Source: a virus. From it: a stretch of DNA of 64,000 nucleotides. The stretch's first letter is position 1; every line of letters begins with the position of its first letter. The notes below the pieces were generated by a model. That model was not told the origin of the DNA and did no database searches. It worked only from the letters and a program-made list of their open reading frames with translations. The position numbers and the translations under genes are program-made. The stretch is taken from the UHGV virus genome UHGV-1682877; one strand, given 5' to 3'. Shown here piece after piece: positions 9,822-63,179 of the stretch.

Positions 9822-10182
9822 AAAAGATTATTATAAAAAAATTCTCCAACATTTTGGAGATAATTGCCCAGAATCAGAAATGATTAGAAATTTCCTTGAA
9901 AATGAAATTATGTTGCTTGATAGAAAAACAGAGTCTGCAAAGTTAAAAGCTATTGAAGCAAAAGAAAAAGGTGATGAATTGCGCGAACAGATTTATGACA
10001 TTTTGCCCAGCTGCGAGGAAAATCCCATCCCTGTTTCTAAAATAAAAGAAATTTTAAATAATGATTTAATTACTTCTCAAAAAATTTCTGCACGTTTAAC
10101 TCAGTTATTTAAATTAAACAAAATTGAGAAACAAGAAATTTCTTTTGAAGGTCAGAAAAAGACTGGATATAGAAAAATTTAA
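9805..10182 (+). CDS. hypothetical protein
   Basis: 125-aa ORF; TAAGGAG SD. Confidence 0.55.
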   Translation: MKKMTKKDYYKKILQHFGDNCPESEMIRNFLENEIMLLDRKTESAKLKAIEAKEKGDELREQIYDILPSCEENPIPVSKIKEILNNDLITSQKISARLTQLFKLNKIEKQEISFEGQKKTGYRKI

Positions 10183-10190
10183 GAAGATAA

Positions 10191-10218
10191 AGAGGAGAAT
10201 TTTTTCTCCTCTTTTTTA
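10191..10218 (+). terminator. rho-independent terminator (agaggagaa / ctcctct + T-run)
   Basis: Read directly. Confidence 0.7.
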
Positions 10219-10280
10219 TTACCATAATTATAATAACATATTTTTTGCTAAAAATAAAGTTTGAAACTTTTAGCTTGGCT

Positions 10281-10328
10281 TAGGTCGGGGCGGAGACGTG
10301 CGAATAAAAATAGCTTTAACAAATTTTT
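10281..10328 (+). promoter_or_regulatory. conserved GC-rich 45-nt motif, copy A (ggtcggggcggagacgtgcgaataaaaatagctttaacaaatttttt)
   Basis: One of three near-identical copies (with 17754 and 52119) of a GC-rich block in an AT-rich genome. Confidence 0.6.
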
Positions 10329-10350
10329 TAAAGGATAAAGGAGAATAACA

Positions 10351-11127
10351 ATGTTATATAGTTTAAATACAAGACTAAAAAAATTAATGCCAGATGAAAT
10401 CAAATGTCAAATAAATAGATTAGGAGACATTTTTGATTTAATTAAAGAAAATCCAGACATTAGATGTAATATTCAATACACTAATATGGGCGAATTATCT
10501 GAAAAAAAACTGGATGAACAAATTGATTTCATTAAAGAAGTGGCAAAAGATTATACAATAGCTGTAATTAATTTCCAAGATTTGCGGAAATTAAAAGCAA
10601 AAGGCTATAATGTATATTTAGATTTGCCGGTTTCAGATTGGGAAACTTTTAATAATTTAAAAAATATTGGCGTTTCAGATATTTACATTGACGGAGCTTT
10701 AGGATTCCAAATGGAGAAAATTGGAAAAGCAAAAGGAAAAATAAAGATTAGGGTTACTCCGCATATGTCGCCAAATGCGCAATGGTCATCTTCAGATAAT
10801 GAAAATTCTTTTTATATTCGACCAGAAGATATAGATAATTATTCTAAATATGTAGATATTTTAGACTTTAGAGATAACAGCAAAGATGCAGAAGAAACTT
10901 TATTCAATATTTATAAAAGGAAGATTTTTCCTTTTGATTTAAATAATTTAATTAGACAACTGAATTTACCAACTAATAATATTTATATTGCAAATAGTTT
11001 TTGTTCAAACAGATTGAATTGCGGGCAAAGATGTCAGGAGCCTGATATTTCTTGTCATTTATGTAGAAATGCAATTTTAATTTCTAATAAAATGAATGAA
11101 TATATTAGTTTAACGGAAAAAAATTGA
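10351..11127 (+). CDS. hypothetical protein
   Basis: 258-aa ORF; AAAGGAGAA SD; Cys cluster near C-terminus. Confidence 0.6.
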   Translation: MLYSLNTRLKKLMPDEIKCQINRLGDIFDLIKENPDIRCNIQYTNMGELSEKKLDEQIDFIKEVAKDYTIAVINFQDLRKLKAKGYNVYLDLPVSDWETFNNLKNIGVSDIYIDGALGFQMEKIGKAKGKIKIRVTPHMSPNAQWSSSDNENSFYIRPEDIDNYSKYVDILDFRDNSKDAEETLFNIYKRKIFPFDLNNLIRQLNLPTNNIYIANSFCSNRLNCGQRCQEPDISCHLCRNAILISNKMNEYISLTEKN

Positions 11128-11962: not shown

Positions 11963-13232
11963 ATATTCTCAAAATTATTCTTTTCCTCTTGATTGTGAAG
12001 AAATAATTACTTCTTGGGAAATTAATAAAGCTAAATTGAACAAAGAATATTTGAACGAAAAAATTACTTTACAATTAACTGATGAACCAGTATCTATTAC
12101 TCTTGATGAAACTTTTAGAAGAGATAGTTTTTTTGAATTTATTGATAAAGTTATGAATTTGTTGGAACCATCTGAAGATGCTCCAGATAGTGAAATAGAA
12201 CTATATTACCATTTTTATGATTTTCTTAGTGATAATGTAAATAATTTTTATTCTAATATTGTTACTTCAGATTTTTTAAATATTGTAAAACGTGGAAGTA
12301 AAATTATTAAATCTTTTAAATATTTTGTTAAAGATAAACAAAAGCTCAGAAAAATCCAGGATATGGCAAGTGAATTAATTCAAACACAAAAAATTTCTGG
12401 ATATTTATTTGCTTCTATTGATCCATTTGAATTTTTAACTTCTAGTGAGAATAATTGCAATTGGCGTTCTTGTCATTCATTAGATGGAGATTATCGTGCG
12501 GGAAATATTAGCTATATGAATGATCAATCTACTATTATTGTATTTTTAGCAAATGAAGAAAAAATCAATGTAGACTGTTTACCAAAATCTATCAAAGTCT
12601 ATAATAAAAAATGGAGAATGTTAATTCATATAAATCAAAATGATAATATAATTTATTATGGAAGGCAATATCCTTCTTATAATAAAAATTTATTAGATTT
12701 AGTTTATAGTAAATTATTTTGTGATAAAGGTTTTATGCCTCCTAAAAAGGTTACTTTTGACCAAATTAATTTAAATCAGGATAATTGTATTGATTTAGAC
12801 CACAATTATATGGCATTAAATAACAAAGTTTTTGATACTTTAGAGTTAATTGATATTCCAGAAAATTCGTTAAATTATAATGATATTGTATATTCTTCAT
12901 TCTACCAAACGCAAGTCAGTATTAATAGAGAATATAAATATTATTATAGTAAAGATAAGCAAAAGACAATAGATTTATTTTTAACTAAAGTTGGTTATCC
13001 TGTTGCTTGCGCTTGCGGATGTGGCAGAAAAGTAAGTAATTCGGCAAGCTTTATTTGTGATACTTGTGCAGAAAAATATAATGCTGAAGGAAATTTATAT
13101 CCAATTTGCTCTTGTTGTGGACAAAGAATAAATTTAAAAGATAAACAGAGTTATAAACAAGAAGAAGAAGGTCTTTATTGTAGTCTTTGTTGGCGAGGAA
13201 TTAAGTCACTTGAACGTCAATTGAATTTTTAA
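11928..13232 (+). CDS. hypothetical protein with C-terminal CxxC clusters (paralog of 8148..9821)
   Basis: 434-aa ORF; TTG start in track; conserved NW(E/R)SC block and KKWR block shared with 8148 ORF. Confidence 0.6.
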   Translation: MNLQKSLEAAIKYSQNYSFPLDCEEIITSWEINKAKLNKEYLNEKITLQLTDEPVSITLDETFRRDSFFEFIDKVMNLLEPSEDAPDSEIELYYHFYDFLSDNVNNFYSNIVTSDFLNIVKRGSKIIKSFKYFVKDKQKLRKIQDMASELIQTQKISGYLFASIDPFEFLTSSENNCNWRSCHSLDGDYRAGNISYMNDQSTIIVFLANEEKINVDCLPKSIKVYNKKWRMLIHINQNDNIIYYGRQYPSYNKNLLDLVYSKLFCDKGFMPPKKVTFDQINLNQDNCIDLDHNYMALNNKVFDTLELIDIPENSLNYNDIVYSSFYQTQVSINREYKYYYSKDKQKTIDLFLTKVGYPVACACGCGRKVSNSASFICDTCAEKYNAEGNLYPICSCCGQRINLKDKQSYKQEEEGLYCSLCWRGIKSLERQLNF

Positions 13233-13262
13233 TAAAAATATATTATAATATATTTAGAAAAT
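13221..13262 (+). promoter_or_regulatory. sigma70-like promoter (-35 TTGAAT, -10 TATAAT 13244-13249) with leader
   Basis: 17-bp spacing. Confidence 0.6.
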
Positions 13263-13279
13263 TAAGAAAGGAATAAAAT

Positions 13280-13738
13280 ATGACTGTAAAAGAGCATGAA
13301 GTAAAAGTTTTTAAATGGCATTATACTTTGGTTAAAAGTTCAGCCATTTTTTATTTAAAAGATTTTATTAATCAAAATGTTTCAGATATTGATTATTATA
13401 TTGCTGATAATAATGAAAGTAATAAAATTATTTTGAATATTAACGGAGTAGAGTATCGTCTTTTAATTAATGATTATCTTCTTTATGACCCTTATTATAA
13501 TACTTTTGTCATATTAGAAAAATCTCCAGAATCTCTTTTTAAAGAATATGAAAAAGATTATGTTATTAAATTTTTAGATAATTATATTGGTAAAAATTTT
13601 CATGATATAAATACTATTTTTAGTTGTGCAAAACATTTTTCTTCTAAAGAAGAAGCTGAAAAAGTAGTAGATTTTTTAGTTGATAATTTTAATAGTAGCA
13701 GAGCTTGTTTTGAAATTATTGACTTAAATGAGGAATAA
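13280..13738 (+). CDS. hypothetical protein (intact paralog of 13741..14036)
   Basis: 152-aa ORF; SD AAGAAAGGA. Confidence 0.6.
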   Translation: MTVKEHEVKVFKWHYTLVKSSAIFYLKDFINQNVSDIDYYIADNNESNKIILNINGVEYRLLINDYLLYDPYYNTFVILEKSPESLFKEYEKDYVIKFLDNYIGKNFHDINTIFSCAKHFSSKEEAEKVVDFLVDNFNSSRACFEIIDLNEE

Positions 13739-13740
13739 TT

Positions 13741-14036
13741 ATGGATAATATTATTGAACGAAAAGTTAAAATATTTTGTTGGCATTTTATTATTGATAAA
13801 AAAATGGCTATTTCTTGTTTAGAAGATTTTTGAATAATATTAATGATATTTCTTTTTATATTTTTACAAGCACTCATAATGATGTTATTCATTTTAAAAT
13901 TAATGAAAAAGAATATGTTCTTTTAATGGGAGATTATTTGGTTTATGATTCTTATTATGAGAATTTTGCTATATTTCATAAACTTCCAAAATATATTCGT
14001 AAAATACAACAAATTGAAAATTTAAAAAATAAATGA
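13741..14036 (+). pseudogene. frameshifted paralog of 13280..13738 (ATG 13741 reads 30 codons to TGA 13831-13833; homology continues in -1 frame as ORF 13815..14036)
   Basis: Both reading frames align with consecutive segments of the upstream paralog; shift lies on a T5 run. Confidence 0.5.
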
Positions 14037-26570: not shown

Positions 26571-28094
26571 ATGGAAAATAAGATGCTTAATATTTTGAAG
26601 GAAAAGAATACTCATTCTATCACTGAGAACGGCGGTTTGACTTATAATTCTACTATGAATGGAATTATGGATTTGTTTGCTCTTGGTGGTGCTTATCGAA
26701 ATCGCTCAGATGATGATTGTATTTTTCTTTTTAAGAAGGCTTTTGAGGAAGATATTTCTTATGCTTTGAAGTGTCTCTTTTATTTGCGAGACGTACGCGG
26801 TGGACAGGGAGAACGCAGATTTTTTAAGGTCGTAACTTCTTGGTTGGCAGTTAATCACACCGAGGAAATGCGTAGAAATCTGAAGTATGTTCCTGAGTAT
26901 GGTCGCTGGGATGATTTGTATGCTTTTGTTGATACTCCGCTTGAGGCAGATGCTTTTAAGACTATGTATCATCAGCTTGCTCTTGATGTTCAGTGTAAAA
27001 CTCCTTCTCTTTTGGCTAAGTGGTTGAAGTCTGAAAATACTTCTTCTGCAGAATCTCGTATGCTTGGAGCTAAAACCAGAATGGCTTTTAATATGTCTCC
27101 TAAGCAGTATCGCAAGATTCTCTCTATTCTTCGTGAAAGAATTAGAGTTTTGGAAAGACTGATGAGTGAAAACCGTTGGGATGAAATTGAATTTGATAAG
27201 ATTCCTTCTAAGGCAGGTCTAAAGTATCGCAATGCTTTTGCAAAGCACGATATTGAAAGAGAAAAGTCTAATAAGGTAACTTATGAAGAGTTTGTAAAGG
27301 ATTCTAATACTAAGGTCAATGCTGATACTTTGAATCCCGCAGATGTAGTTCATGCTGTTGTTTCTAAATTTCCCTATTATAGAGGAAATTTTAATGGAAC
27401 TGATGTGGAGAGAGCTGCACTCAATAAGTATTGGGATAATCTAAAGGATTATTTTAATAATGCTGTTTTTGACGGTGTTGCTGTCGTTGATACTTCTGGT
27501 TCTATGTGTGGTTTTTATGGTAGTGAGAAAACTATTGCACCTATTGATGTAGCTATTTCTCTTGGTATGTATTGTGCTGAGAAGTGTAATCCCAATTCTC
27601 CCTGGTATGGACATTATATTACTTTTTCCCGAACTGCAAGATTGGTACCTGTTGAAGGTATTGATTTTGTTGATAAGGTGCGTAGAATTTATCAAAAGAA
27701 TCTTTGTGAGAATACCAACATTAAAAGTATTTTTGATTTGCTATTGAGCAATGCTATTAAATATAATATTCCTAATGAAGAAATGCCTAAAAACATTGTA
27801 ATCATTAGTGATATGGAATTTGATTATTGCGCTGGTTACTATAATAGTGATGAATACAAGTCTGAAATGGAAAAGATTATGCAAGTTTGGAACTCTCATG
27901 GTTACACTACTCCACATTTGATTTTCTGGAATGTTGACGCTCGAAATGATAATATTCCCATGAAGATGAAGGATGGTATTACTTTTATTTCTGGTTATTC
28001 TGCGGTAACTTATGAAATGTTGATGACTGGTAAAACTGGTTTTGATTTGGTTTTGGAAAAGTTGAACAATAAGAGATATGAGGTAATCAAGTAA
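26571..28094 (+). CDS. vWA-domain protein with Ro60/Rsr-like (TROVE + vWA) architecture
   Basis: 507 aa; MIDAS-type VVDTSGSM about 300 aa from N-terminus; N-terminal ENGGLTY ... LGGAYR resembles TROVE start; AAAAGGAGAA SD. Confidence 0.5.
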   Translation: MENKMLNILKEKNTHSITENGGLTYNSTMNGIMDLFALGGAYRNRSDDDCIFLFKKAFEEDISYALKCLFYLRDVRGGQGERRFFKVVTSWLAVNHTEEMRRNLKYVPEYGRWDDLYAFVDTPLEADAFKTMYHQLALDVQCKTPSLLAKWLKSENTSSAESRMLGAKTRMAFNMSPKQYRKILSILRERIRVLERLMSENRWDEIEFDKIPSKAGLKYRNAFAKHDIEREKSNKVTYEEFVKDSNTKVNADTLNPADVVHAVVSKFPYYRGNFNGTDVERAALNKYWDNLKDYFNNAVFDGVAVVDTSGSMCGFYGSEKTIAPIDVAISLGMYCAEKCNPNSPWYGHYITFSRTARLVPVEGIDFVDKVRRIYQKNLCENTNIKSIFDLLLSNAIKYNIPNEEMPKNIVIISDMEFDYCAGYYNSDEYKSEMEKIMQVWNSHGYTTPHLIFWNVDARNDNIPMKMKDGITFISGYSAVTYEMLMTGKTGFDLVLEKLNNKRYEVIK

Positions 28095-28148: not shown

Positions 28149-29210
28149 ATGATATTATTAAATGATGATAATAGACACAGAGATTTTACAGGTGTAACTC
28201 GTTTTCACAATGCAGGTTATTTTGGAGAAAGAGTAAATGCCGCAAGTGGAGAAACCTGGGATGTTAATAGATATAATCCAGATAATTTAGTAAGAAATTG
28301 CTTAAAGGATAAACAATTTTCAGATGAACATCCAATAAATACTGCGGCAACATTTTTTCAAGTAGCTCCAAAAGCTCATCTATTTATGCTTTATTCCATT
28401 GATGGCAGTTATGGTAGTGGAGATAATTATAACTCTAAATTTTTTAATGAATCAGTAGAAATTATTGAAAAATATAATATTACTAATATGTTTACCTCTT
28501 TAAATTGTAGTAGACATACTAAATTTTTTGAAGATTTAAAAAATTGGTATATTAAACATCCTAGTTTTAAACCCTTTTGGTGCGCAGGAAATGATTCTTC
28601 TAAAAAATATAATCCAATTATGGAAATTGAAGAAGTAATTGGTGTAGCCGCTTATACTTTAATGGTAAATGGTACAGTAAATCCTGCTTATTATTCTAGT
28701 ATTAGTAGTTATGTAGACTTTTCTGCACCTAGTATGATTTATTTAAATCCGCAAGCTACAAAACCAGACGCAGCAACTTATTCCAATTCTGGTACTTCTT
28801 TTTCTACACCTTGGTTATGTGGAATGAGCTGTTTAGTAGATGATTTCTTTATTGATAAAAAAGGATTACCTCTAACAAGAGAAGGAATGATTCAATTCTT
28901 TAAAGATAATTGTAAAGATATAGGCGATAAGGGTATTGATCCAAAAACAGGATTTGGCGCAGTAATTTTACCTGAACCAAATTCTATTGATATTGATAAA
29001 TATTATAATATTGGGAGGACAAATATGAGTACATTAGATAAATTTAAAGATAAAAATGATATTTCTAATTGGGCTAAAGCAAGTATTGAATGGGCTGTTA
29101 ATACAGGTATTCTTCAAGGTGACGATAAAGGCTATCTTTTACCCAAAGCTTACCTAACTAGAGAGCAAATGGCAGTTATGTTAGAGCGTTTTAAAAATAT
29201 TATAAAATAA
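28149..29210 (+). CDS. subtilisin-like serine protease (S8) with C-terminal SLH-like cell-wall-binding domain
   Basis: GTSFSTPW matches subtilase Ser motif; C-terminal W..A...G...GD..G...P...LTREQ..VMLERF is SLH-like and paralogous to the C-terminus of the 36251 ORF. Confidence 0.6.
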   Translation: MILLNDDNRHRDFTGVTRFHNAGYFGERVNAASGETWDVNRYNPDNLVRNCLKDKQFSDEHPINTAATFFQVAPKAHLFMLYSIDGSYGSGDNYNSKFFNESVEIIEKYNITNMFTSLNCSRHTKFFEDLKNWYIKHPSFKPFWCAGNDSSKKYNPIMEIEEVIGVAAYTLMVNGTVNPAYYSSISSYVDFSAPSMIYLNPQATKPDAATYSNSGTSFSTPWLCGMSCLVDDFFIDKKGLPLTREGMIQFFKDNCKDIGDKGIDPKTGFGAVILPEPNSIDIDKYYNIGRTNMSTLDKFKDKNDISNWAKASIEWAVNTGILQGDDKGYLLPKAYLTREQMAVMLERFKNIIK

Positions 29211-44028: not shown

Positions 44029-44038
44029 TAATTAATGT

Positions 44039-44064
44039 AAAAGGAGGACTTTTGTCCTCCTTTT
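44039..44064 (+). terminator. rho-independent terminator (ggaggac / gtcctcc + T-run)
   Basis: Read directly. Confidence 0.65.
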
Positions 44065-44090
44065 ATTTCTCTTAAAGAGGTGTAATAAAA

Positions 44091-44750
44091 TTGGGCAAAG
44101 TTATTATCCAATCCGCAACTACTAAGAATCCTCTTCATCTTATCGGCGTTGAAGCGGGAGTATGTTGGAACGCAAAAATCACAAATAAATATAATAATAT
44201 TAAAAGAGCTAAAGAATGTATTGAATCTGGGCATGGAAGAGTTATGGAATTTCCACAAGTTTATATGATCCTTGAAGGATATAGCGCAAAAACTTTGAGA
44301 GAATTTTATACTCATATTTCAGGTGGCCCCACACGACTACAAGCGTCAACTCGCTATATCAACTATGATTCTTTTTCTTTTGTTTCTCCTTCTTTTACTT
44401 CTAAAGAAATGAAACAAAAATATGAAGAAAGTATGCAATCAATTGCTCAGAATTATAAAGTATTAGTTGATATGGGGATGCCGATTGAAGATGCTAGTCT
44501 TTTGCTTCCTCTCGGTATGGAAACAAAAGTAGTAGTAAGAACTAATTTGCGGAATTTAGTTGATATGTCCCATCAAAGAATGTGTAAACGTGCCTATTGG
44601 GAATATCAAAATGTTATGCAGGATATAAAAAAAGCACTTGCTATTTACTCAGAAGAATGGAAATATTTGGTAGATCACTTATTTGTTCCCAAATGTCAAT
44701 ATTTCGGCAAATGTACCGAGAAGCATTCTTGCGGTAAATTGAAAAATTAA
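44091..44750 (+). CDS. ThyX-like flavin-dependent thymidylate synthase family protein, divergent motif
   Basis: C-terminal NLRNLVDMSHQRMCKRAYWEYQ resembles conserved ThyX C-terminal block; region aligning to RHR...S.RY reads THISGGPTRLQASTRY; TTG start. Confidence 0.45.
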   Translation: MGKVIIQSATTKNPLHLIGVEAGVCWNAKITNKYNNIKRAKECIESGHGRVMEFPQVYMILEGYSAKTLREFYTHISGGPTRLQASTRYINYDSFSFVSPSFTSKEMKQKYEESMQSIAQNYKVLVDMGMPIEDASLLLPLGMETKVVVRTNLRNLVDMSHQRMCKRAYWEYQNVMQDIKKALAIYSEEWKYLVDHLFVPKCQYFGKCTEKHSCGKLKN

Positions 44751-44844: not shown

Positions 44845-45801
44845 ATGAGTAAGAAGTTTATTAATGCAGTACATTTGAATGGTTTTGTTCATAGTCACAA
44901 GCTTGAAAAGAAGGTTTCTGGCAGTGCTTCTAAGAATCCTGGTACTGAGTATATTCGTGGTGATGTTAATATTGCAACAGATAATAAGTGTCTGAATGTT
45001 GTTACTGTTCATTTTAGATATGTAACCGCGGTTACTGCTCGTGGTACTAATGATACTTATAATATTCTTGAGCGAATTTTGAATAATGATCTGGGTAATG
45101 TCATGGATAATGGCAAGGATAATGCGGCATATGTAAGAATTGATACTGCTATTGCTTTGAATGAATTTTATGATAAGAATGATATGGAAAAGCTGGTAAG
45201 TAATCGACGTCTTGAAGGTGGTTTTATTCATCTTGAGGTTTGCCCCGAAGAGGGAATTGATGAATCTAAGAGTGCAACTTTCAATGAAGATATTGTGATT
45301 AATAATTGTGTGCGTTATGAGGCAGATGATGAGAGAGGTAAGCCTGAGCGTGTTGTTATTAAGGGTGCAGTTTTTGATTTTCGTAAGGCATTGCTTCCTG
45401 TTGAATTTACTGCTGTAAATCCTGCGGCGATGGATTATTTTGAAGGGCTGGAAGCAAGTCCTAAGAATCCAGTTTTTACTCGTATTCAGGGTAAAATTAT
45501 TTCTCAGACTGTGGTAAAGAAGATCGAGGAAGAGTCTGCTTTTGGCGAAGCAATTGTGAAAGAAACTCCTCAGTCTTATAAGGATTATGTAGTTAATTGG
45601 GCGCAGCAGACTCCTTATGAGTGGGATAGTGAAGATACTATTCTTGCTTCTGAGCTTCAGGATTATGTTGCAGCACGAGAGATTGCTCTTGCAACCATTA
45701 AGAAGAATCAGCTCGATTATCAGAATAAAGCAAATAATAACGCTATTGGTGGCGGAACTGGGGTTACAGTTAATTCTAGTAAGAATGATTATGATTTTTA
45801 A
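44845..45801 (+). CDS. hypothetical protein (acidic aromatic C-terminal tail; possible ssDNA-binding protein)
   Basis: 318-aa ORF; AAAGGAGAA SD; C-terminal GGGTG...NDYDF; function is a guess from context. Confidence 0.6.
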   Translation: MSKKFINAVHLNGFVHSHKLEKKVSGSASKNPGTEYIRGDVNIATDNKCLNVVTVHFRYVTAVTARGTNDTYNILERILNNDLGNVMDNGKDNAAYVRIDTAIALNEFYDKNDMEKLVSNRRLEGGFIHLEVCPEEGIDESKSATFNEDIVINNCVRYEADDERGKPERVVIKGAVFDFRKALLPVEFTAVNPAAMDYFEGLEASPKNPVFTRIQGKIISQTVVKKIEEESAFGEAIVKETPQSYKDYVVNWAQQTPYEWDSEDTILASELQDYVAAREIALATIKKNQLDYQNKANNNAIGGGTGVTVNSSKNDYDF

Positions 45802-56600: not shown

Positions 56601-57458
56601 GGATTAATTAGACATAAAATTTTGCCAGAAGAAACAGAAGAACAAATAACTGCAAGAAAAATTTATGAGTTTAACAGATATTTAAAAAATGAATGTAAAT
56701 ATGACAATGAATATTATAAACTTGATGAAAGAGCTTTAAATTTTATTTATGAAATGGATTATGGGCATTGGATTGAAAATAATTATTTCTTAAATAAGAA
56801 AATTTGGGATAAAAATATTTATCAGACTTGGATGGACGTTTTTAGAAATTGGATTAATCAAGATAAACAAAATATTTTAAATAAATTAAATACAAGCATT
56901 TTTATGAAAGATTGGGAAAAATATGCTTCTGGTAATTTATCTTCTTGGGAAATGGAAGCTTTATGTTTTTATTATCATCCGCATGAATTAATTAATGTTA
57001 ATAAAAATAAGTATGGTATTGTTGATTTTGAACAATTGCCTATTGAGCCAGAAGTAGAAAAGTTTTTCAAAAAAGGTGCTGTTCAAATTCCTATTTATAA
57101 ATTACATAAAATTTGTGGAACTTGTATTGCAAAAAACAAACCGAAAGGAATTGTTTATCTTTTAACTACTACTGGGGTAGTACCAGTAAAATTGAGAAAA
57201 GAACATTTTGCTATTTTTGATAAACAAATTTCCGAACGTCAATCAGATGGAACTAAGAAAGTGATTGAAAAGAGTTGGTTTAATAGAGGCAATATGATTT
57301 TAGTCCAGGGTATTCGTCGAGGAGATGAATTTGTTAGTAAAAAATATGCTTCTAGTATTTCTCATCAACTATATCATATTGATAATATTGATGAACATGG
57401 AGATTTGATTTTAAGACATACAAGACTTCAAGGAGATATTGAAGATGAAGAAGATTAA
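53619..57458 (+). CDS. dnaE: DNA polymerase III alpha subunit (DnaE-type replicase with N-terminal PHP domain)
   Basis: PHP motif VHNHSEFS; GPGRGSGVGF matches pol III alpha polymerase-core signature; 1279 aa; TTG start. Confidence 0.85.
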   Translation: MLKFPGSVHNHSEFSNIRLRDCIIKVENLIDTAVSLGHKVLAITDHDCLSGHLSALSYYEKIKKDNPDFKLILGNEIYLCRNGLNQDNFISGEDSYYHFILLAKDKEGHKQLREISTRAWLRSYKTGKMRRVPTYYQDLIDIIDNNKGHLIASSACLGGFLSSECLKLAENPDEERKNHLVKWCKSMVKLFGEGNFYIELQPPEKKDNEQYLANQQLLKIAKELNIPWIVTTDSHYARLEDRPIHKAYLNSQDGEREVDAFYATTYMMTTEELESHFDFSLDEAYKNIDYIASQCEDYDLRKSLKIPQLPWKIFNPKSNLYNWVNDIPLLKEFIESDYIGDVELAKAIVERLEKDETLRNQKTYEAINDCLDKTWESSIVNKTHWSAYYLNLQKIIDCCWEAGSLVGPGRGSGVGFILLYLLDITQINPLRETVQTFSWRFLNPSRVSVLDVDVDIEGSKRAQVLSHLREVYGEDRVANVITFGKETSKSAILTACRGLGIDVDEAQYIASLIPADRGLIRTLSQCYYGDKENGYPVIRPFVDKMKEYPELWDVAHKIEGLICRSGIHAGGVIFVDEPFTESASLMRAPDGTIVTGYDLHRAEDVSLIKYDLLSVEAMDKMHNCLDLLLAANKIQDKGSLRETYEEILGVYNIERNDSEMWKMVNNHEIQSLFQMEKQSGIQGIALTHPKSVEDLAHLNSIIRLMAQEKGGEQPLNKYARFKANINLWYQEMENYGLTEQEQELLKPYLSGSYGICESQEGFMQLVQIPECGGFDLTFADSLRKAIAKKNPAAYDELTKKYFTEVKEKSLSQNLCNYVWNVLVATSRGYGFNLSHTLAYSIIAVQEMNLAFKFPIVYWNCACLINDAGGEDGSTDYNKIATALGKMQKANIKISLVDINNSQYNFVPDEKQNLIWMGLKSLLNVGDDLIKDIIAKRPYDSMIDFYNRVRPNKQAMITLIKGGAFDNLSPRYDTMITYLWLTCDKKSRLTLQNLPGLIRHKILPEETEEQITARKIYEFNRYLKNECKYDNEYYKLDERALNFIYEMDYGHWIENNYFLNKKIWDKNIYQTWMDVFRNWINQDKQNILNKLNTSIFMKDWEKYASGNLSSWEMEALCFYYHPHELINVNKNKYGIVDFEQLPIEPEVEKFFKKGAVQIPIYKLHKICGTCIAKNKPKGIVYLLTTTGVVPVKLRKEHFAIFDKQISERQSDGTKKVIEKSWFNRGNMILVQGIRRGDEFVSKKYASSISHQLYHIDNIDEHGDLILRHTRLQGDIEDEED

Positions 57459-57999
57459 AATTATTGCAATTGCAGGAAAAAGTGGTGCGGGGAAAGATTC
57501 TATTCTTTCCTCCGCCATTAAGCTTAATCCGCAATTAAACCCAATTATTTCTTGTACTACTAGACCTAAAAGAGATAATGAAACAGAAGGAAAAGATTAT
57601 CATTATCTTACTAATGAAGAATTCGCGGTTAAACTTTTAAATGGAGATATGCTAGAAGCTACTTCATTTAATGGGTGGTGTTACGGAACCTCTTATTCTA
57701 CTCTTGATACAAATAAAATTAATATTGGAGTTTTTAATCCAGAAGGTTTAGAAATTTTAAAAGACAATCCAAATATTATTTTAAAGATTTTTTATATAGA
57801 TGTATCAAATAAAGAAAGATTGATAAGACAACTTAATAGAGAAAAAGAACCTAATATTGAAGAAATTATTCGCAGATATGAGACAGATGAAAAAGATTTT
57901 AGAAGTTTTGTTTCAGAATTTAATTGTGAAATTTTAAAAAATTTAACTAGAAAAGATTTTACAGCTAGTGTGCAACGTATTGCTGGGCAAATCTTTTAA
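57445..57999 (+). CDS. deoxynucleoside monophosphate kinase-like P-loop kinase (T4 gp1-like)
   Basis: Walker A IAGKSGAGKDS at N-terminus; ATG 57445 after AGGAG. Confidence 0.5.
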   Translation: MKKIKIIAIAGKSGAGKDSILSSAIKLNPQLNPIISCTTRPKRDNETEGKDYHYLTNEEFAVKLLNGDMLEATSFNGWCYGTSYSTLDTNKINIGVFNPEGLEILKDNPNIILKIFYIDVSNKERLIRQLNREKEPNIEEIIRRYETDEKDFRSFVSEFNCEILKNLTRKDFTASVQRIAGQIF

Positions 58000-58060
58000 A
58001 TATAAATACTACAATTTGTATATATAATATGTATCAATAAATATATATAGAGGTGTAATA

Positions 58061-60349
58061 ATGTTTGATTTAATTAAACGTGATGGTTCAATCGCGGTTT
58101 TTAATAAAAATAAAATTGTTAATGCAATTAATAAAGCTTTTATTGAAGTAGACGGACAGTTGTATGAAGATGATACTGCAAAAGATATAGCAAATGAAAT
58201 TGAAAAAAAAATGCAGCATTATCCTGAAGGAAGTATTGGTGTTGAAGATATTCAAGATTGGGTTGAAGATTTTTTAATGCAGTCTTATCGAAGAGATGTG
58301 GCTAGAGCTTATATTCGTTTTAGATATAAGAAAGAAGTAGCAAGAGAAAAGAAAAATGATTTTATTAATGCTATTAGAGAAAAACTTGATGCTTCTAATA
58401 TTCAAAATCAAAACGCAAATGTTGATGAGTCTTCTTTTGGCGGGAGAACTGGTGAAGCAAGTGATATAGTCACAAAACAATTGGCTTTGGATTATATTGT
58501 TTCACCCATGGCCAGAAAAAATCATTTAAATAATGAAATTTATATTCATGATTTAGGTAGTTATTATGTAGGTAGTCATAATTGTTTATCTATTCCCTTT
58601 GATGATTTGCTTGCTAATGGTTTTAATACACGCCAGACAGATGTAAGACCGGCTCAAAGTGTTAATACTGCTTTTCAGCTTGTCGCAGTTATTTTTCAGC
58701 TACAATCTTTACAACAATTTGGTGGTGTGAGCGCAACTCATCTTGATTGGACAATGGTACCTTATGTAAGAAAGAGTTTTTATAAACATTATTGTGATGG
58801 ATTAAAATATTTTTGCGATTGGTCTGATAGTAGTTGCGCAGGAATGAAAATAAATCTTTTAGAAGAAAATTGTTCTATAAATAATATTAAATTTTTAACA
58901 CAGATAGGGATTGGAAACAAACCATATAAATATGCTATGGATATGACAATAAAAGAAACATATCAAGCTGTTGAAGGAATGTATCATAATCTTAATACAT
59001 TGCAATCACGCTCTGGAAATCAATTACCTTTTACATCAATTAATTATGGTACTTGCACACTACCAGAAGGACGTTTGGTAACTAAAGCTCTTCTCGATGT
59101 TTCAATAAAAGGAATTGGAAAATTACATAAAACAAGTATTTTCCCTTGCGGAATTTTTCAAATGATGAAAAATGTAAATCGTAAACCTGGAGATCCAAAT
59201 TATGATTTATATCAATTAGCGTTAAAATCAACCGCTCAAAGACTATATCCTAATTATGCAAATGTTGATTGGAGTGGAAACGAAGGTTATGATCCAGACG
59301 ATCCGTGTACATATTTCTCGACAATGGGGTGTAGAACGGCTAACGGATGGGATATTAATGGCCTAGGACAACGTAAAGATGGACGTGGAAATATTTGTCC
59401 TGTAACTATTATTATGCCTACTTTAGCTATGGAAGCTAAAGAAATTACTAATAATACAAAATTTAAATTTACACAGTTCTGCAATAAAGATGAATATGAA
59501 CAAAGTAAAAAAAATGGAACTTCTTATCACGTTCATATATTTATGGAGCTTCTGGATAAAAAAATTAATGAAGCAAAAGATATGTTAATTGAACGCTTTG
59601 AATGGATTTGTTCTCAATCTCCTGATTCAGCTAAATTCATGTATGAAAATAATGTTATGGCAGGATATATTCCAGAAGAAGGTATCCGTAGTGCTCTAAA
59701 ACATGGAACTTTAGCTTTGGGTCAAATTGGTCTTGCTGAGACTCTACAAATTTTGATTGGTAAAGACCACACCACTCCAGAAGGAATGGAATTAGCAAAA
59801 AAAATTGAATCTTTATTTAAAAAGCGTTGTGCAGAATTTAAAGAATATTATAAGTTAAATTTTGGTGTTTATTATACTCCCGCAGAAAATTTAGCTTATA
59901 CAGCAATGGAAAAATTTAAAGAAAAATATGGTATTATTCCTAACGTTTCAGATAAAGATTTCTTTACAAATAGTATACATGTTCCCGTTTGGAAGGAAAT
60001 GTCTCCTTTTGAAAAAATTGATATAGAATCTCAATTAACAGGATATTCAAGCGCTGGTTGTATTACATATATTGAATTAGATTCAACAGTAAAAAATAAT
60101 TTAGAAGCATTAGAAATTATAGTAAATTATGCTATGGATAAAGATATCCCTTATTTTGCAATTAATGTACCTAATGATACTTGTTTAGAGTGCGGATACT
60201 GTGATGAATTTAATGATAGTTGTCCTGAATGTGGTAGTAGTCATATTCAACAATTAAGAAGAGTAACCGGTTATTTAACAGGAGATTATAAAACTGCATT
60301 TAATCTAGGTAAACAGCAAGAAGTCTCTATGAGAGTAAAACATTTATAA
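58061..60349 (+). CDS. nrdD: anaerobic ribonucleoside-triphosphate reductase (class III, NrdD)
   Basis: N-terminal ATP-cone-like segment; C-terminal Zn-ribbon CLECGY...CPECG followed by glycyl-radical motif RRVTGYL; 762 aa. Confidence 0.85.
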   Translation: MFDLIKRDGSIAVFNKNKIVNAINKAFIEVDGQLYEDDTAKDIANEIEKKMQHYPEGSIGVEDIQDWVEDFLMQSYRRDVARAYIRFRYKKEVAREKKNDFINAIREKLDASNIQNQNANVDESSFGGRTGEASDIVTKQLALDYIVSPMARKNHLNNEIYIHDLGSYYVGSHNCLSIPFDDLLANGFNTRQTDVRPAQSVNTAFQLVAVIFQLQSLQQFGGVSATHLDWTMVPYVRKSFYKHYCDGLKYFCDWSDSSCAGMKINLLEENCSINNIKFLTQIGIGNKPYKYAMDMTIKETYQAVEGMYHNLNTLQSRSGNQLPFTSINYGTCTLPEGRLVTKALLDVSIKGIGKLHKTSIFPCGIFQMMKNVNRKPGDPNYDLYQLALKSTAQRLYPNYANVDWSGNEGYDPDDPCTYFSTMGCRTANGWDINGLGQRKDGRGNICPVTIIMPTLAMEAKEITNNTKFKFTQFCNKDEYEQSKKNGTSYHVHIFMELLDKKINEAKDMLIERFEWICSQSPDSAKFMYENNVMAGYIPEEGIRSALKHGTLALGQIGLAETLQILIGKDHTTPEGMELAKKIESLFKKRCAEFKEYYKLNFGVYYTPAENLAYTAMEKFKEKYGIIPNVSDKDFFTNSIHVPVWKEMSPFEKIDIESQLTGYSSAGCITYIELDSTVKNNLEALEIIVNYAMDKDIPYFAINVPNDTCLECGYCDEFNDSCPECGSSHIQQLRRVTGYLTGDYKTAFNLGKQQEVSMRVKHL

Positions 60350-60545
60350 ACTATATAAGGCAAACATTTATGTGGAAAATGTGTGGTATGTTTTTTTTGA
60401 TTAAAAGATTTAAGCAAATTTTAGTTAATACGAGCATAAAGCGCTTAACTGCTGAGGCAAAAGTTTGTACTGGAGAAGAATAAATTTCTGAAATGGCAAA
60501 ATAAGACAAAAATATTTGGTAATCAGTAGCAAAAGGAGAAAATAT

Positions 60546-60947
60546 ATGTCTAAGTTTTATTATGGAGACAGAGTTCGCGTTTCAAATACATATGTTGTAG
60601 ATAGGGCATGCGGTACTGTTGTTGGTAAAGTAAGAGCAAGGGGTGGCTACGCTCTTACTAAAGAAGGCAGTGATTCTAATAAAGAAAGTAGTGATGCTTT
60701 CAATTACTTAGTTAAATTAGATAATATTAGTTCTGCTTACTATACTATACATGGAAAAAATTGCAACTATATTTGGGGACATGCATCTGATAATGCTGAT
60801 TGTATCATTGTGAAAGAAAATGAGATGGAACATTTACAAGACTATTTTTCTAAAAATATTATACTTGAGTTCAATGAGCATACAATCACAGTAGAAAGGT
60901 TAGAAGAGTATGAACAATTTATTAAAAAAATATGCTTGTTATTTTAA
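60546..60947 (+). CDS. hypothetical protein
   Basis: Internal ATG of track ORF 60516..60947 after AAAGGAGAA SD. Confidence 0.5.
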   Translation: MSKFYYGDRVRVSNTYVVDRACGTVVGKVRARGGYALTKEGSDSNKESSDAFNYLVKLDNISSAYYTIHGKNCNYIWGHASDNADCIIVKENEMEHLQDYFSKNIILEFNEHTITVERLEEYEQFIKKICLLF

Positions 60948-61257
60948 TAAACAAGAAGGCCGAAGATATCCAGTTAGTAACCAAATTGTTACATGTGTAT
61001 ATATTACAGAAGATAAGCAAGAAGTAATTAATTATTTAAATAAAAATAATCTTTCTATTGCTAAAATGCGAAAAAATTTTATAGAATGGCAAGAAAATAA
61101 TGAACATTGGATATGGCATCCAATGTCAGAAGGTTTTAGAGGTTATAGATTTTATAAAGTTAAAATATCTAAAAACTATAACAATTATGAAGTTTTAAAA
61201 ACAATAATACTTCCTTGCTGTGCTAATTATTGTTGTTCTTGGGAGATAATGAAATGA
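60910..61257 (+). CDS. hypothetical protein
   Basis: 115-aa ORF overlapping neighbours; Cys-rich C-terminus. Confidence 0.4.
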   Translation: MNNLLKKYACYFNKQEGRRYPVSNQIVTCVYITEDKQEVINYLNKNNLSIAKMRKNFIEWQENNEHWIWHPMSEGFRGYRFYKVKISKNYNNYEVLKTIILPCCANYCCSWEIMK

Positions 61258-61727
61258 GATATGCAGCTATAAAAGAAAATGATATTGCAAATGGCCCAGG
61301 AGTAAATGTTTCTTTTTGGGTACAAGGTTGTAAAAATCATTGTACAGATTGCCAAAATCCTGAAACTTGGTCATTTACTGGCGGTAAAGAATTTACAAAA
61401 GATACATTAAATAATCTTTTTAAAGCATTAAAAGCAAATGGAATAAATAGAGATTTAAGTATTCTGGGCGGAGAACCGCTCTGCCCAGAAAATATTCCTA
61501 TTACTAAATATATAATTCAACAAGTAAAAGAAAAATATCCAGAAACTAAAATTTATTTATGGTCTGGTTATTATTATGATGAATTAGTCAAAAATAAGGA
61601 AATAAAAGAAGAAATTTTTCCTTATTTAGATATATTGGTGGATGGGCCTTACATTAATTCGCAAAGAGATATTACTTTAAAATGGCGAGGTTCCCGCAAT
61701 CAAAATATTATTTACTTGAAAAAATAA
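61254..61727 (+). CDS. nrdG: anaerobic ribonucleotide reductase activating enzyme (NrdG, radical SAM)
   Basis: GCKNHCTDC gives Cx3Cx2C; ILGGEPL; small size; adjacent to nrdD. Confidence 0.8.
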   Translation: MRYAAIKENDIANGPGVNVSFWVQGCKNHCTDCQNPETWSFTGGKEFTKDTLNNLFKALKANGINRDLSILGGEPLCPENIPITKYIIQQVKEKYPETKIYLWSGYYYDELVKNKEIKEEIFPYLDILVDGPYINSQRDITLKWRGSRNQNIIYLKK

Positions 61728-62386: not shown

Positions 62387-62644
62387 ATGATTAATAAAAA
62401 TTTAATTAAAGTCACTAATGTTTATAGAGTTCCTACTGTTTATGATGCTCTTGCTTTGCGGGAGGAGCTTTCTAAAAATAATTATGGTGAATTAATTAGC
62501 TTTAGTTATACTACTAAATACGTTAAAGCAACAGATGAAGAATATCAAGTTGTTAAAGCTACAATAAGTTTTAATGATGAAAAGAATCCTGAAAGTAATG
62601 TTGATGCTTTTTATGGTTATAAGGAGGATGCAGATATTGATTAA
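62387..62644 (+). CDS. hypothetical protein
   Basis: 85-aa ORF. Confidence 0.5.
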   Translation: MINKNLIKVTNVYRVPTVYDALALREELSKNNYGELISFSYTTKYVKATDEEYQVVKATISFNDEKNPESNVDAFYGYKEDADID

Positions 62645-63179
62645 GTTTGAAAAAGTAAAGCGTTTTGAAAACGCAGATATTCAAATGCCGAAGAGAGGTA
62701 CCAAGTATTCCGCAGGTTATGATATGTATGTTGCGGAAAATATTATAATTCCGCCACTTGAGACTCATACAATGAATCTTTTGAAAAATTCCGTTCAAGT
62801 TTCTGATGATAATATTATTACTTTAGAACAAATGGAAAAGATTACAAAGGCTACTAAGGCTAAACCTACTCTTGTTTCTACTGGTGTAAAGTGTTATATG
62901 GAACCTAATCAGTATTTGCAGTTGGCGGTTCGTAGTTCAACTCCTCTTAAATACTGGCTGATTCAAGGTAATGCACCAGGCATTGTAGATGCTGATTATG
63001 CAGGCAATCCTGAGAATGATGGAGAAATTTTCTTTCAAATGATTAATTTAAGTCCTTTTGCTATTGAGTTAAAGAAAGGTGATCGTATTGGCCAAGGTGT
63101 AATTCATAATTATTCTGTAACAGATGATGATAAAAGTGAAAATGAACGCATTGGTGGATACGGTTCAACTGGTAGATAA
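62637..63179 (+). CDS. dut: dUTP diphosphatase (trimeric dUTPase)
   Basis: All five dUTPase motifs in order: SAGYDMY, VRSSTPL, GIVDADYAG, DRIGQG, RIGGYGSTG; TTG 62637 chosen for SD spacing (ATG 62628 is an alternative). Confidence 0.9.
   Translation: MIKFEKVKRFENADIQMPKRGTKYSAGYDMYVAENIIIPPLETHTMNLLKNSVQVSDDNIITLEQMEKITKATKAKPTLVSTGVKCYMEPNQYLQLAVRSSTPLKYWLIQGNAPGIVDADYAGNPENDGEIFFQMINLSPFAIELKKGDRIGQGVIHNYSVTDDDKSENERIGGYGSTGR

Follow-up and report, generated by a model that had tools for sequence, protein, structure and literature searches.

Positions 44091 to 44750 of the 64,000-nucleotide stretch of UHGV virus genome UHGV-1682877 analyzed here (the window) carry a gene for a flavin-dependent thymidylate synthase of the ThyX family, in which the family's RHRx7S signature has given way to THIx9S. 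The protein is probably a working deoxythymidine monophosphate (dTMP) synthase with a rewired arginine network. Its THI form is a conserved trait of a subfamily and not a phage peculiarity, and for the phage the gene is most likely an ordinary deoxynucleoside triphosphate (dNTP) supply gene also present in the host lineage, and gives no sign of modified DNA.

The assignment to ThyX, in both family and fold, is secure. An earlier reading of the DNA letters (the original prediction) had proposed it, and profile and structure comparisons bear it out. Pfam PF02511 (Thy1) matches residues 10-183 with E=1.6e-34 (119.8 bits, where the gathering score is 24.8), and the protein also matches PHROG 'thymidylate synthase' families. 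An AlphaFold2 model built from 47 homologues has a mean predicted local distance difference test score (pLDDT) of 95.2 and the ThyX fold. The top Protein Data Bank (PDB) matches of this model in Foldseek are all Thermotoga maritima ThyX (template modeling (TM) scores 0.73-0.79, ~0.78 over ~214 columns at 18% identity). When the PDB was searched with the single sequence, only the C-terminal half aligned, and the motif region needed a subfamily profile. Against TIGR02170, the NCBI thyX equivalog model, the query scores 68.9 bits, short of the 87.9 set by curation. Megablast with the region gave no match among GenBank phages; the best tblastn match, 47% identical, lies in an unannotated faecal phage. 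The reading frame begins at a TTG codon; the query opens with MGKVIIQ and its homologues with MGK(V/I)IIQ, and the start codon is therefore correct. Both strings quoted in the original prediction, YTHISGGPTRLQASTRY and TNLRNLVDMSHQRMCKRAYWEYQ, lie within this frame.

The residue register was set by aligning a subfamily HMMER profile with the T. maritima protein (Tm numbering), using the S-x-R-Y motif as anchor; a MAFFT alignment with T. maritima gave an ungapped, misleading motif register, and the hidden Markov model (HMM) alignment was used instead. In this register (Table 1), the two RHR arginines that the original prediction suspected of being replaced are indeed absent, T74 standing for R78 and I76 for R80, and no intact RHR was found elsewhere in the 219-residue protein. 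The spacer between THI and the conserved Ser has nine residues against seven in the signature, which is that of Myllykallio 2002 as used in PMC2826268. A further loss had been overlooked, namely Tm position 147, which is Ser136 in the query. Together with the position of Mycobacterium tuberculosis (Mtb) R87, the arginines of the flavin adenine dinucleotide (FAD) and deoxyuridine monophosphate (dUMP) phosphates, Tm R78, R80, R147 and Mtb R87, are thus represented by T74, I76, S136 and A66. The residues of the chemical step (Tm H53, S88, R90, Y91, R165 and R174) are all retained, and their counterparts H48, S86, R88, Y89, R154 and R163 vary little or not at all among 47 diverse sequences.

The missing arginines are matched by new basic residues. 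In the clade of the query, positions 50, 67 and 82 carry Arg or Lys in strict covariation with the losses. In one 222-sequence alignment, from which all of the covariation counts come, T74 is accompanied by R or K at position 82 in 177/177 sequences, against 2/41 of those with R74. Every sequence with R136 has S or T at position 50 (35/35), while 180/186 of those without R136 have R or K there, the remaining six showing a gap or Glu; R66-A67 likewise alternates with A66-R/K67. The complete list of switches, obtained by comparing THI-type with RHR-type members, is given in Table 1. Intermediate sequences possess R50 and have lost R136 while still retaining R74, with a non-basic residue at position 82. 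The change was therefore stepwise, and such intermediates would fit compensated drift.

Published structures indicate what these positions contact. In the M. tuberculosis enzyme, the RHR triad hydrogen-bonds the AMP phosphate, the ribityl and the flavin mononucleotide (FMN) phosphate of FAD, and is joined in these contacts by Ser71 and Arg190 of the neighboring subunit; dUMP is held by Arg95, Arg199, Arg87, Ser105 and Arg107, with Tyr108 as the lid (PMC6514825). In T. maritima, R78, R80, S88 and R90 hydrogen-bond dUMP (PMC3498832), N1/C2=O of FADH- lies opposite R78, and flavin C2=O/N3H is bound by the backbone of E86 (PMC11940539). In the query register, R50 takes the Ser71 position (His+2), K67 lies beside the Arg87 position (RHR-8) and R82 takes the E86 position. 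The gained basic residues therefore sit at residues already touching the same ligands, and R50, K67 and R82 would take over the lost ligand contacts.

On this basis, the change of Tm R78 to Thr may be offset by R82 at the E86 position, in a loop two residues longer. The changes of R80 to Ile and of R147 to a small residue (R147 being a contact of the dUMP phosphate in T. maritima) may be offset by R50 at the T55/Mtb Ser71 position, and the 'SR' Arg (Mtb R87) would have shifted one residue on (A66, K/R67). The arginines of the FAD phosphate, the flavin edge and the dUMP phosphate would then have moved and not merely been lost. The reaction is predicted to be unchanged in the THI subfamily, dUMP, methylenetetrahydrofolate (CH2-THF) and reduced flavin giving dTMP and tetrahydrofolate (THF). 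The enzyme would act beside the phage dUTPase, NrdDG and nucleotide kinase and would supply thymidylate for the replication of a ~138-kb phage of an anaerobic Firmicute. The subfamily is a derived one, common to gut and rumen Lachnospiraceae and their large phages.

The distribution of the motif extends well beyond this phage. Among the best 120 of 5,614 matches, 119 read THI and one THV, all with the nine-residue spacer and the consensus RE(F/L)YTHIxGxPTRLQxSTRY. A scan of GTDB with one genome per species found the motif in 344 genomes, overwhelmingly Lachnospiraceae, with carriers also among other Clostridia and Erysipelotrichaceae; cultured carriers include Acetatifactor muris DSM 23669, Lachnospira multipara ATCC 19207, L. 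pectinoschiza, [Clostridium] aminophilum and Stecheria intestinalis. In IMG/VR, the motif occurs in 476 viral contigs, including that of the query phage, IMGVR_UViG_3300045988_145614 (137,669 bp), where the window spans bases 71032-135031 in reverse; viral and bacterial sequences are intermingled in neighbor-joining leaf order. The bacterial neighborhoods are chromosomal, with RelA/SpoT, spoIIA-sigF, Mfd, trigger factor-ClpXP-Lon, homoserine dehydrogenase and transketolase, and a prophage origin of the bacterial copies was rejected because of the last four of these. A few Bacteroidota-labelled contigs also hold a THI gene, L028 (a 1.2-Mb scaffold of a Muribaculaceae metagenome-assembled genome (MAG)), L036 (a Bacteroides fragilis MAG) and L043 (Bacteroidaceae); these genes share 58-59% identity with the query, much as the Lachnospiraceae copies do, and could reflect mis-binning, a phage contig or horizontal transfer.

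This conservation makes it extremely improbable that the gene is an inactive, decaying remnant of a thyX. Signature arginines have been lost that mutagenesis work has reportedly found necessary in canonical enzymes, but 44 positions are invariant among 21 subfamily members that are 41-61% identical to the query, and the query retains every residue invariant in the subfamily. The frame is intact, with its own ribosome-binding site and an operon-like context, and the variant has been maintained in hundreds of bacterial and phage lineages. The conservation pattern effectively refutes the pseudogene reading.

Genomic context was counted at the loci of 80 bacterial species and at 80 viral loci. In the bacteria, the next gene downstream, in the same orientation, is folA, which encodes dihydrofolate reductase (DHFR), at 31/80 loci, and folA is within 8 kb at three more; in Firmicutes, adjacency to folA is the classic position of thyA. 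A dCMP deaminase gene is found two genes downstream (+2) at five loci, and a dCTP deaminase gene 3 kb upstream in another lineage. No ThyA was found within 10 kb at any of the 80 bacterial loci. A search with the linked DHFR for thyA-folA versions of the operon returned only relatives at least 79% identical.

Alignments and a complete HMMER search covering 1.8 billion representatives place the THI clade inside a broader ThyX group in which five cysteines are invariant (C25, C165, C202, C208 and C214). The corresponding motifs, 'A.(V/I)C', 'R.C..A.WE' and 'C-x5-C-x-E-x3-C', occur in both RHR-type and THI-type members, and P0316, P0237 and the L187 gene (4173-4916) also carry them. The more distant members of this group are canonical throughout, reading RHRx7SQRY, 'EDARxxLP' and AQWE, and come from Hippea, Deferribacterales, Coprothermobacteraceae, Synergistetes and several archaeal lineages. 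TIGR02170 scores run from 179-205 bits in these canonical relatives through 102-105 in the intermediates to 60-69 in THI members (60-62 in bacterial ones). The five cysteines are absent in T. maritima ThyX, M. tuberculosis ThyX and chain 6j61, and no Cys or metal site in ThyX was found in the literature; the set may form a structural Zn or Fe-S site in a ThyX class without a solved structure.

These cysteines and the folA linkage bear on a second reading, which we consider unlikely: that the protein is a mechanistically distinct thymidylate synthase, with another flavin-binding mode, another cofactor (e.g., FMN) or another electron donor. The Cys set could then be a metal or Fe-S site, and the folA linkage a true dependence on DHFR. 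Consistent with this, RHR at the FAD phosphates and ribityl and R78 at flavin N1, a residue stabilizing anionic FADH-, are both replaced, the cysteines are missing from the ThyX structures compared, the hosts are strict anaerobes, and DHFR is encoded directly downstream in so many species although canonical ThyX yields no dihydrofolate. The Cys set, however, is found as well in canonical enzymes of the RHR type from many anaerobes and archaea and therefore offers no explanation of the THI change. The Arg gained at the Ser71 position and the retained R154 (Mtb R190) speak for continued binding of the FAD phosphates, and folA adjacency may equally be what remains of a thyA-folA operon after the displacement of thyA.

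At the viral loci, the commonest neighbors are a deoxynucleoside monophosphate (dNMP) kinase (PF21448), an NT5C nucleotidase-glutaredoxin fusion, NrdD, NrdG, Pol III alpha and a Sak4-like ATPase. The context on which the original prediction relied (dUTPase, dNMP kinase, NrdDG) is real in the window, which encodes dUTPase, guanylate kinase, NrdD and NrdG. The gene order is GyrB, GyrA, ligase, thyX, AAA_24 ATPase, DnaB, RecJ, superfamily 1 (SF1) helicase, DnaE, guanylate kinase, NrdD, NrdG and dUTPase, so that thyX is preceded by the ATP-dependent DNA ligase and followed by a recombination/replication block. In the 64-kb window, neither a ThyA nor a second ThyX nor a dCMP deaminase was found, and the ~5 kb beyond its 3' end, read from a related contig, contain only unannotated minus-strand genes and a resolvase.

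Synteny provides a further comparison. The gene of 318 residues at 44845-45801, next to thyX, has homologues at 17 viral loci. The slot close upstream of it holds the THI ThyX in the contig of the query phage, a canonical RHR ThyX in the related phage L187 (4173-4916; 201.6 bits against TIGR02170) and a divergent ThyA-family gene in the related phages L182/L183 (4047-4829). The 260-residue product of the latter is best matched by TIGR03283, the methanogen-type thymidylate synthase, at 128.8 bits, where the cutoff is 174.6. The slot is flanked by open reading frames (ORFs) resembling GIY-YIG homing endonucleases, at 3273-3737 and 5291-5602 in L182 and at 3200-4186 in L187. A textbook ThyX in the same slot is as expected of functionally equivalent genes.

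Two observations on the surroundings of this slot may be added. The 318-residue protein has no Pfam match, adjoins ThyX at 28 viral loci, where it is followed by the AAA_24 (Sak4-like) ATPase, and is probably a single-strand-binding or annealing protein of a recombination module. One phage contig, L122 (IMGVR_UViG_3300045988_139151), encodes a THI-type ThyX (10001-10657) and, 2.3 kb downstream, a divergent ThyA-family protein (12947-13846) that scores 88 bits against PF00303 and falls under all NCBI thyA equivalog cutoffs; in that phage, the pairing could point to a hydroxymethylase-type pyrimidine modification.

From the replaced arginines, the original prediction had raised the possibility of an altered substrate specificity, and had pointed to modified-pyrimidine synthesis in phages. 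As a neofunctionalized ThyX paralogue, the protein might act on UMP, dCMP, a nucleoside or a nucleoside di- or triphosphate, or transfer a hydroxymethyl group. The Tm R147 position, a dUMP-phosphate contact, is replaced in the query, residues at Q75 (to E), G/Q89 (to T) and Q180 (to Y) (Tm numbering) switch as well, and the clade lies under the thyX equivalog cutoff. Residues that hydrogen-bond dUMP are also replaced, namely R78 and R80 (PMC3498832) and Mtb R87 and R95 (PMC6514825), and a precedent exists in PolB, a ThyX paralogue that methylates UMP (PMC5954106).

Most of the evidence points the other way, and we regard such neofunctionalization as quite improbable. In hundreds of bacterial species (the 344 of the GTDB scan), the THI form is chromosomal and looks single-copy, lying in ordinary neighborhoods and beside folA or, in some, dCMP deaminase, outside biosynthetic or modification clusters. 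Its catalytic residues are intact, including R88, R163, S86 and Y89, which recognize or activate the uracil, and each lost arginine is matched one-for-one by a gain at an adjacent ligand-contact position. A canonical RHR ThyX fills the same slot in a related phage. A hypermodification enzyme would combine a ThyA fold with an adjacent kinase or transferase; here the fold is that of ThyX, and no DNA-hypermodification genes (glycosyl-, amino- or kinase-type) were found flanking thyX in the window or at the 80 viral loci. The associations are instead with the thymidylate and folate pathways: folA, dCMP deaminase, dNMP kinase, NrdDG, dUTPase and the slot of a canonical ThyX. Altered specificity is thus a minority reading, of little likelihood, that fits poorly with these contexts and with the residues retained.

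The view favored here, an active dTMP synthase with relocated arginines, also has points that weigh against it. Four canonical ligand-binding arginines are gone (R78, R80, R147 and the 'SR' Arg), the family-defining RHRx7S is missing from the whole THI clade, and the clade scores 60-69 bits where TIGR02170 asks for 87.9. Few independent evolutionary events lie behind the covariation. The contacts proposed for the relocated arginines derive from the sequence register and published structures, and the activity predicted for the clade from family, fold, residues and context. The search for ThyA in carriers covered flanks of up to 10 kb at 80 loci, and that for a second thymidylate synthase in the phage covered the window and ~5 kb on its 3' side out of the ~138-kb contig.

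Table 1. Features of the THI-type thyX gene, residue correspondences of its product and related genes of the window (aa, amino acids; nt, nucleotides; Tm, T. maritima; Mtb, M. tuberculosis; the last column compares RHR-type with THI-type members in query numbering).
Feature	Position	Strand	Counterpart or remark	RHR-type to THI-type
Hairpin, 13 bp, perfect, with T-run; terminator-like on both strands	44037..44066	.	Between upstream 88-aa ORF and thyX	
Ribosome-binding site AAAGAGGTG	44074..44082	+	8 nt upstream of TTG; sequence reading	
thyX-like gene, THI subfamily of flavin-dependent thymidylate synthase	44091..44750	+	219-aa ORF, TTG start	
C25 codon	44163-44165	+		
H48			Tm H53; kept	
R50 (codon)	44238..44240	+	Tm T55 / Mtb Ser71; Arg gained	S to R
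Positions 66-67			67 = Tm F70 position	R-A to A-R/K
Position 71			Tm Q75	Q to E
Variant motif T74-H75-I76-SGGPT-R82-LQA-S86-T-R88-Y89	44310..44357	+	Replaces RHR-x7-S-x-R-Y; HMM alignment	
T74			Tm R78; Arg lost	R to T
H75			Tm H79; kept	
I76			Tm R80; Arg lost	R to I
Positions 79-80			THI versus RHR comparison	Absent to 2-residue insertion
R82			Tm E86; Arg gained	
Q84-A85			2-residue insertion, no Tm counterpart (HMM alignment)	
S86			Tm S88; kept	
Position 87			Tm G/Q89	Q to T
R88			Tm R90; kept	
Y89			Tm Y91; kept	
E133			Tm E144; kept	
S136 (codon)	44496..44498	+	Tm R147; Arg lost throughout THI clade	R to small residue
Conserved C-terminal block N152...Q173 (R154, R163, C165, Y169)	44544..44609	+		
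R154			Tm R165 (Mtb R190); kept	
R163			Tm R174; kept	
C165 codon	44583-44585	+		
Y169			Tm Q180; changed	Q to Y
C-terminal Cys motif C202-x5-C208-x-E210-x3-C214	44694..44732	+	Invariant with C25 and C165 across wide ThyX clade	
Guanylate kinase	57439..57999	+	dNTP-supply block 57439..61727	
NrdD	58061..60349	+	dNTP-supply block	
NrdG	61230..61727	+	dNTP-supply block	
dUTPase, dUMP supplier	62574..63179	+	Pfam PF00692; same replication/nucleotide-metabolism block	

Other features of the window were recorded as well. The hairpin upstream of thyX is one of three terminator-like sites, against 0.6 expected from shuffles. Upstream of thyX, full-length phage GyrB (626 residues) and GyrA (791 residues, with C-terminal beta-propeller repeats) occupy 38021-42289 and are followed by the ATP-dependent DNA ligase at 42286-43383. 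A radical-SAM protein of 419 residues overlaps the start of a 249-residue ORF (22630-24631), and a DUF2828/DUF7788 protein of 507 residues lies at 26571-28094. Two peptidases with an S-layer-homology domain, one subtilase-like (S8; 28149-29210) and one C39-like (36251-37051), suggest a host with an S-layer (Clostridia) and phage enzymes directed at the cell wall. A 215-residue ORF with a GIY-YIG nuclease domain (Pfam PF01541; 16195-16842) is possibly a homing endonuclease.

The THI-type ThyX appears to be a large, undescribed subfamily that lacks two features by which ThyX is customarily defined, RHRx7S and a TIGR02170 score above the cutoff. No description of it was found in the literature covered, which did not include the 2004 report of 'distinctive ThyX motifs' from Trichodesmium. 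A large evolutionary survey discarded sequences deviating from RHRx7S (PMC2826268), and this filtering may be a reason why the clade went unnoticed. Missed by both the motif filter and the equivalog model, the clade, with hundreds of Lachnospiraceae species and hundreds of phage contigs, therefore lies in a blind spot. For ThyX enzymology, it represents a large uncharacterized group with a remodelled active site. If active, the THI enzymes would show that the ThyX arginine network can be rebuilt from different positions, which would be useful for understanding how flavin and dUMP are activated, and relevant to ThyX-directed antibacterials and to the effects of antifolates on commensals, in which the presence of ThyX is taken as a predictor of tolerance. 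There is a small but appreciable chance that the clade is instead mechanistically distinct (in flavin, donor or a Cys-ligated metal) or has shifted its nucleotide specificity; many gut Firmicutes and their phages would then make or modify pyrimidines by a route outside current ThyX enzymology and inhibitors.

Compared with canonical ThyX (T. maritima TM0449, M. tuberculosis Rv2754c, H. pylori and PBCV-1 A674R; PF02511/TIGR02170), the query has the same fold and domain, the flavin- and folate-stacking His (H53), S88, R90, the Tyr91 lid, R165 and R174, and the same kind of nucleotide-metabolism context. Canonical ThyX works as a homotetramer in which three subunits contribute to an active site. 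It differs in reading THIx9S instead of RHRx7S, in lacking Tm R147 and the Mtb-R87-type Arg, in having Arg or Lys at the T55/S71, F70 and E86 positions, and in the change of Q180 to Y. Identity to T. maritima ThyX is 18-20%, with 68.9 bits against the 87.9-bit TIGR02170 cutoff.

Its closest canonical relatives are the Cys-motif ThyX of anaerobes and archaea such as Hippea maritima, Deferribacterales, Coprothermobacteraceae and Freyarchaeota (P0316, P0237), at 27-31% identity. They share with the query the five invariant cysteines, the 'RxC..A.WE' block and the CxxxGxCxExxxC tail; unlike the query, they keep RHRx7SQRY, the R147 equivalent ('EDARxxLP') and AQWE, and score 179-205 bits against TIGR02170. 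In neighbor-joining leaf order, the THI clade lies beyond them, with the intermediates between.

The Pbunavirus (PB1-like) 'ThyX' resembles the query in its non-canonical motif, R-x-C block and C-terminal Cys, but it reads RTR-x8-(T)SRA, keeps the R147 equivalent, bears a C-terminal extension of ~90 residues and represents a separate lineage, scoring 87.4 bits, just below the TIGR02170 cutoff of 87.9. Genes of this kind, with RTR-x8-TSRA and without the His or S-x-R-Y, were seen in Pseudomonas phage S50 (Pbunavirus; L090 1162-2079) and Burkholderia phage WTB (L091 1258-2115).

PolB, the UMP/dUMP C5-methylase of polyoxin biosynthesis, is a ThyX-family enzyme with drifted specificity and thus the precedent for neofunctionalization (PMC5954106); the query was compared with it by description only. 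PolB lies in a Streptomyces antibiotic cluster beside an ordinary second thyX, whereas the THI gene lies in phage replication and dNTP modules, or next to folA in bacteria, and has no second ThyX in the window.

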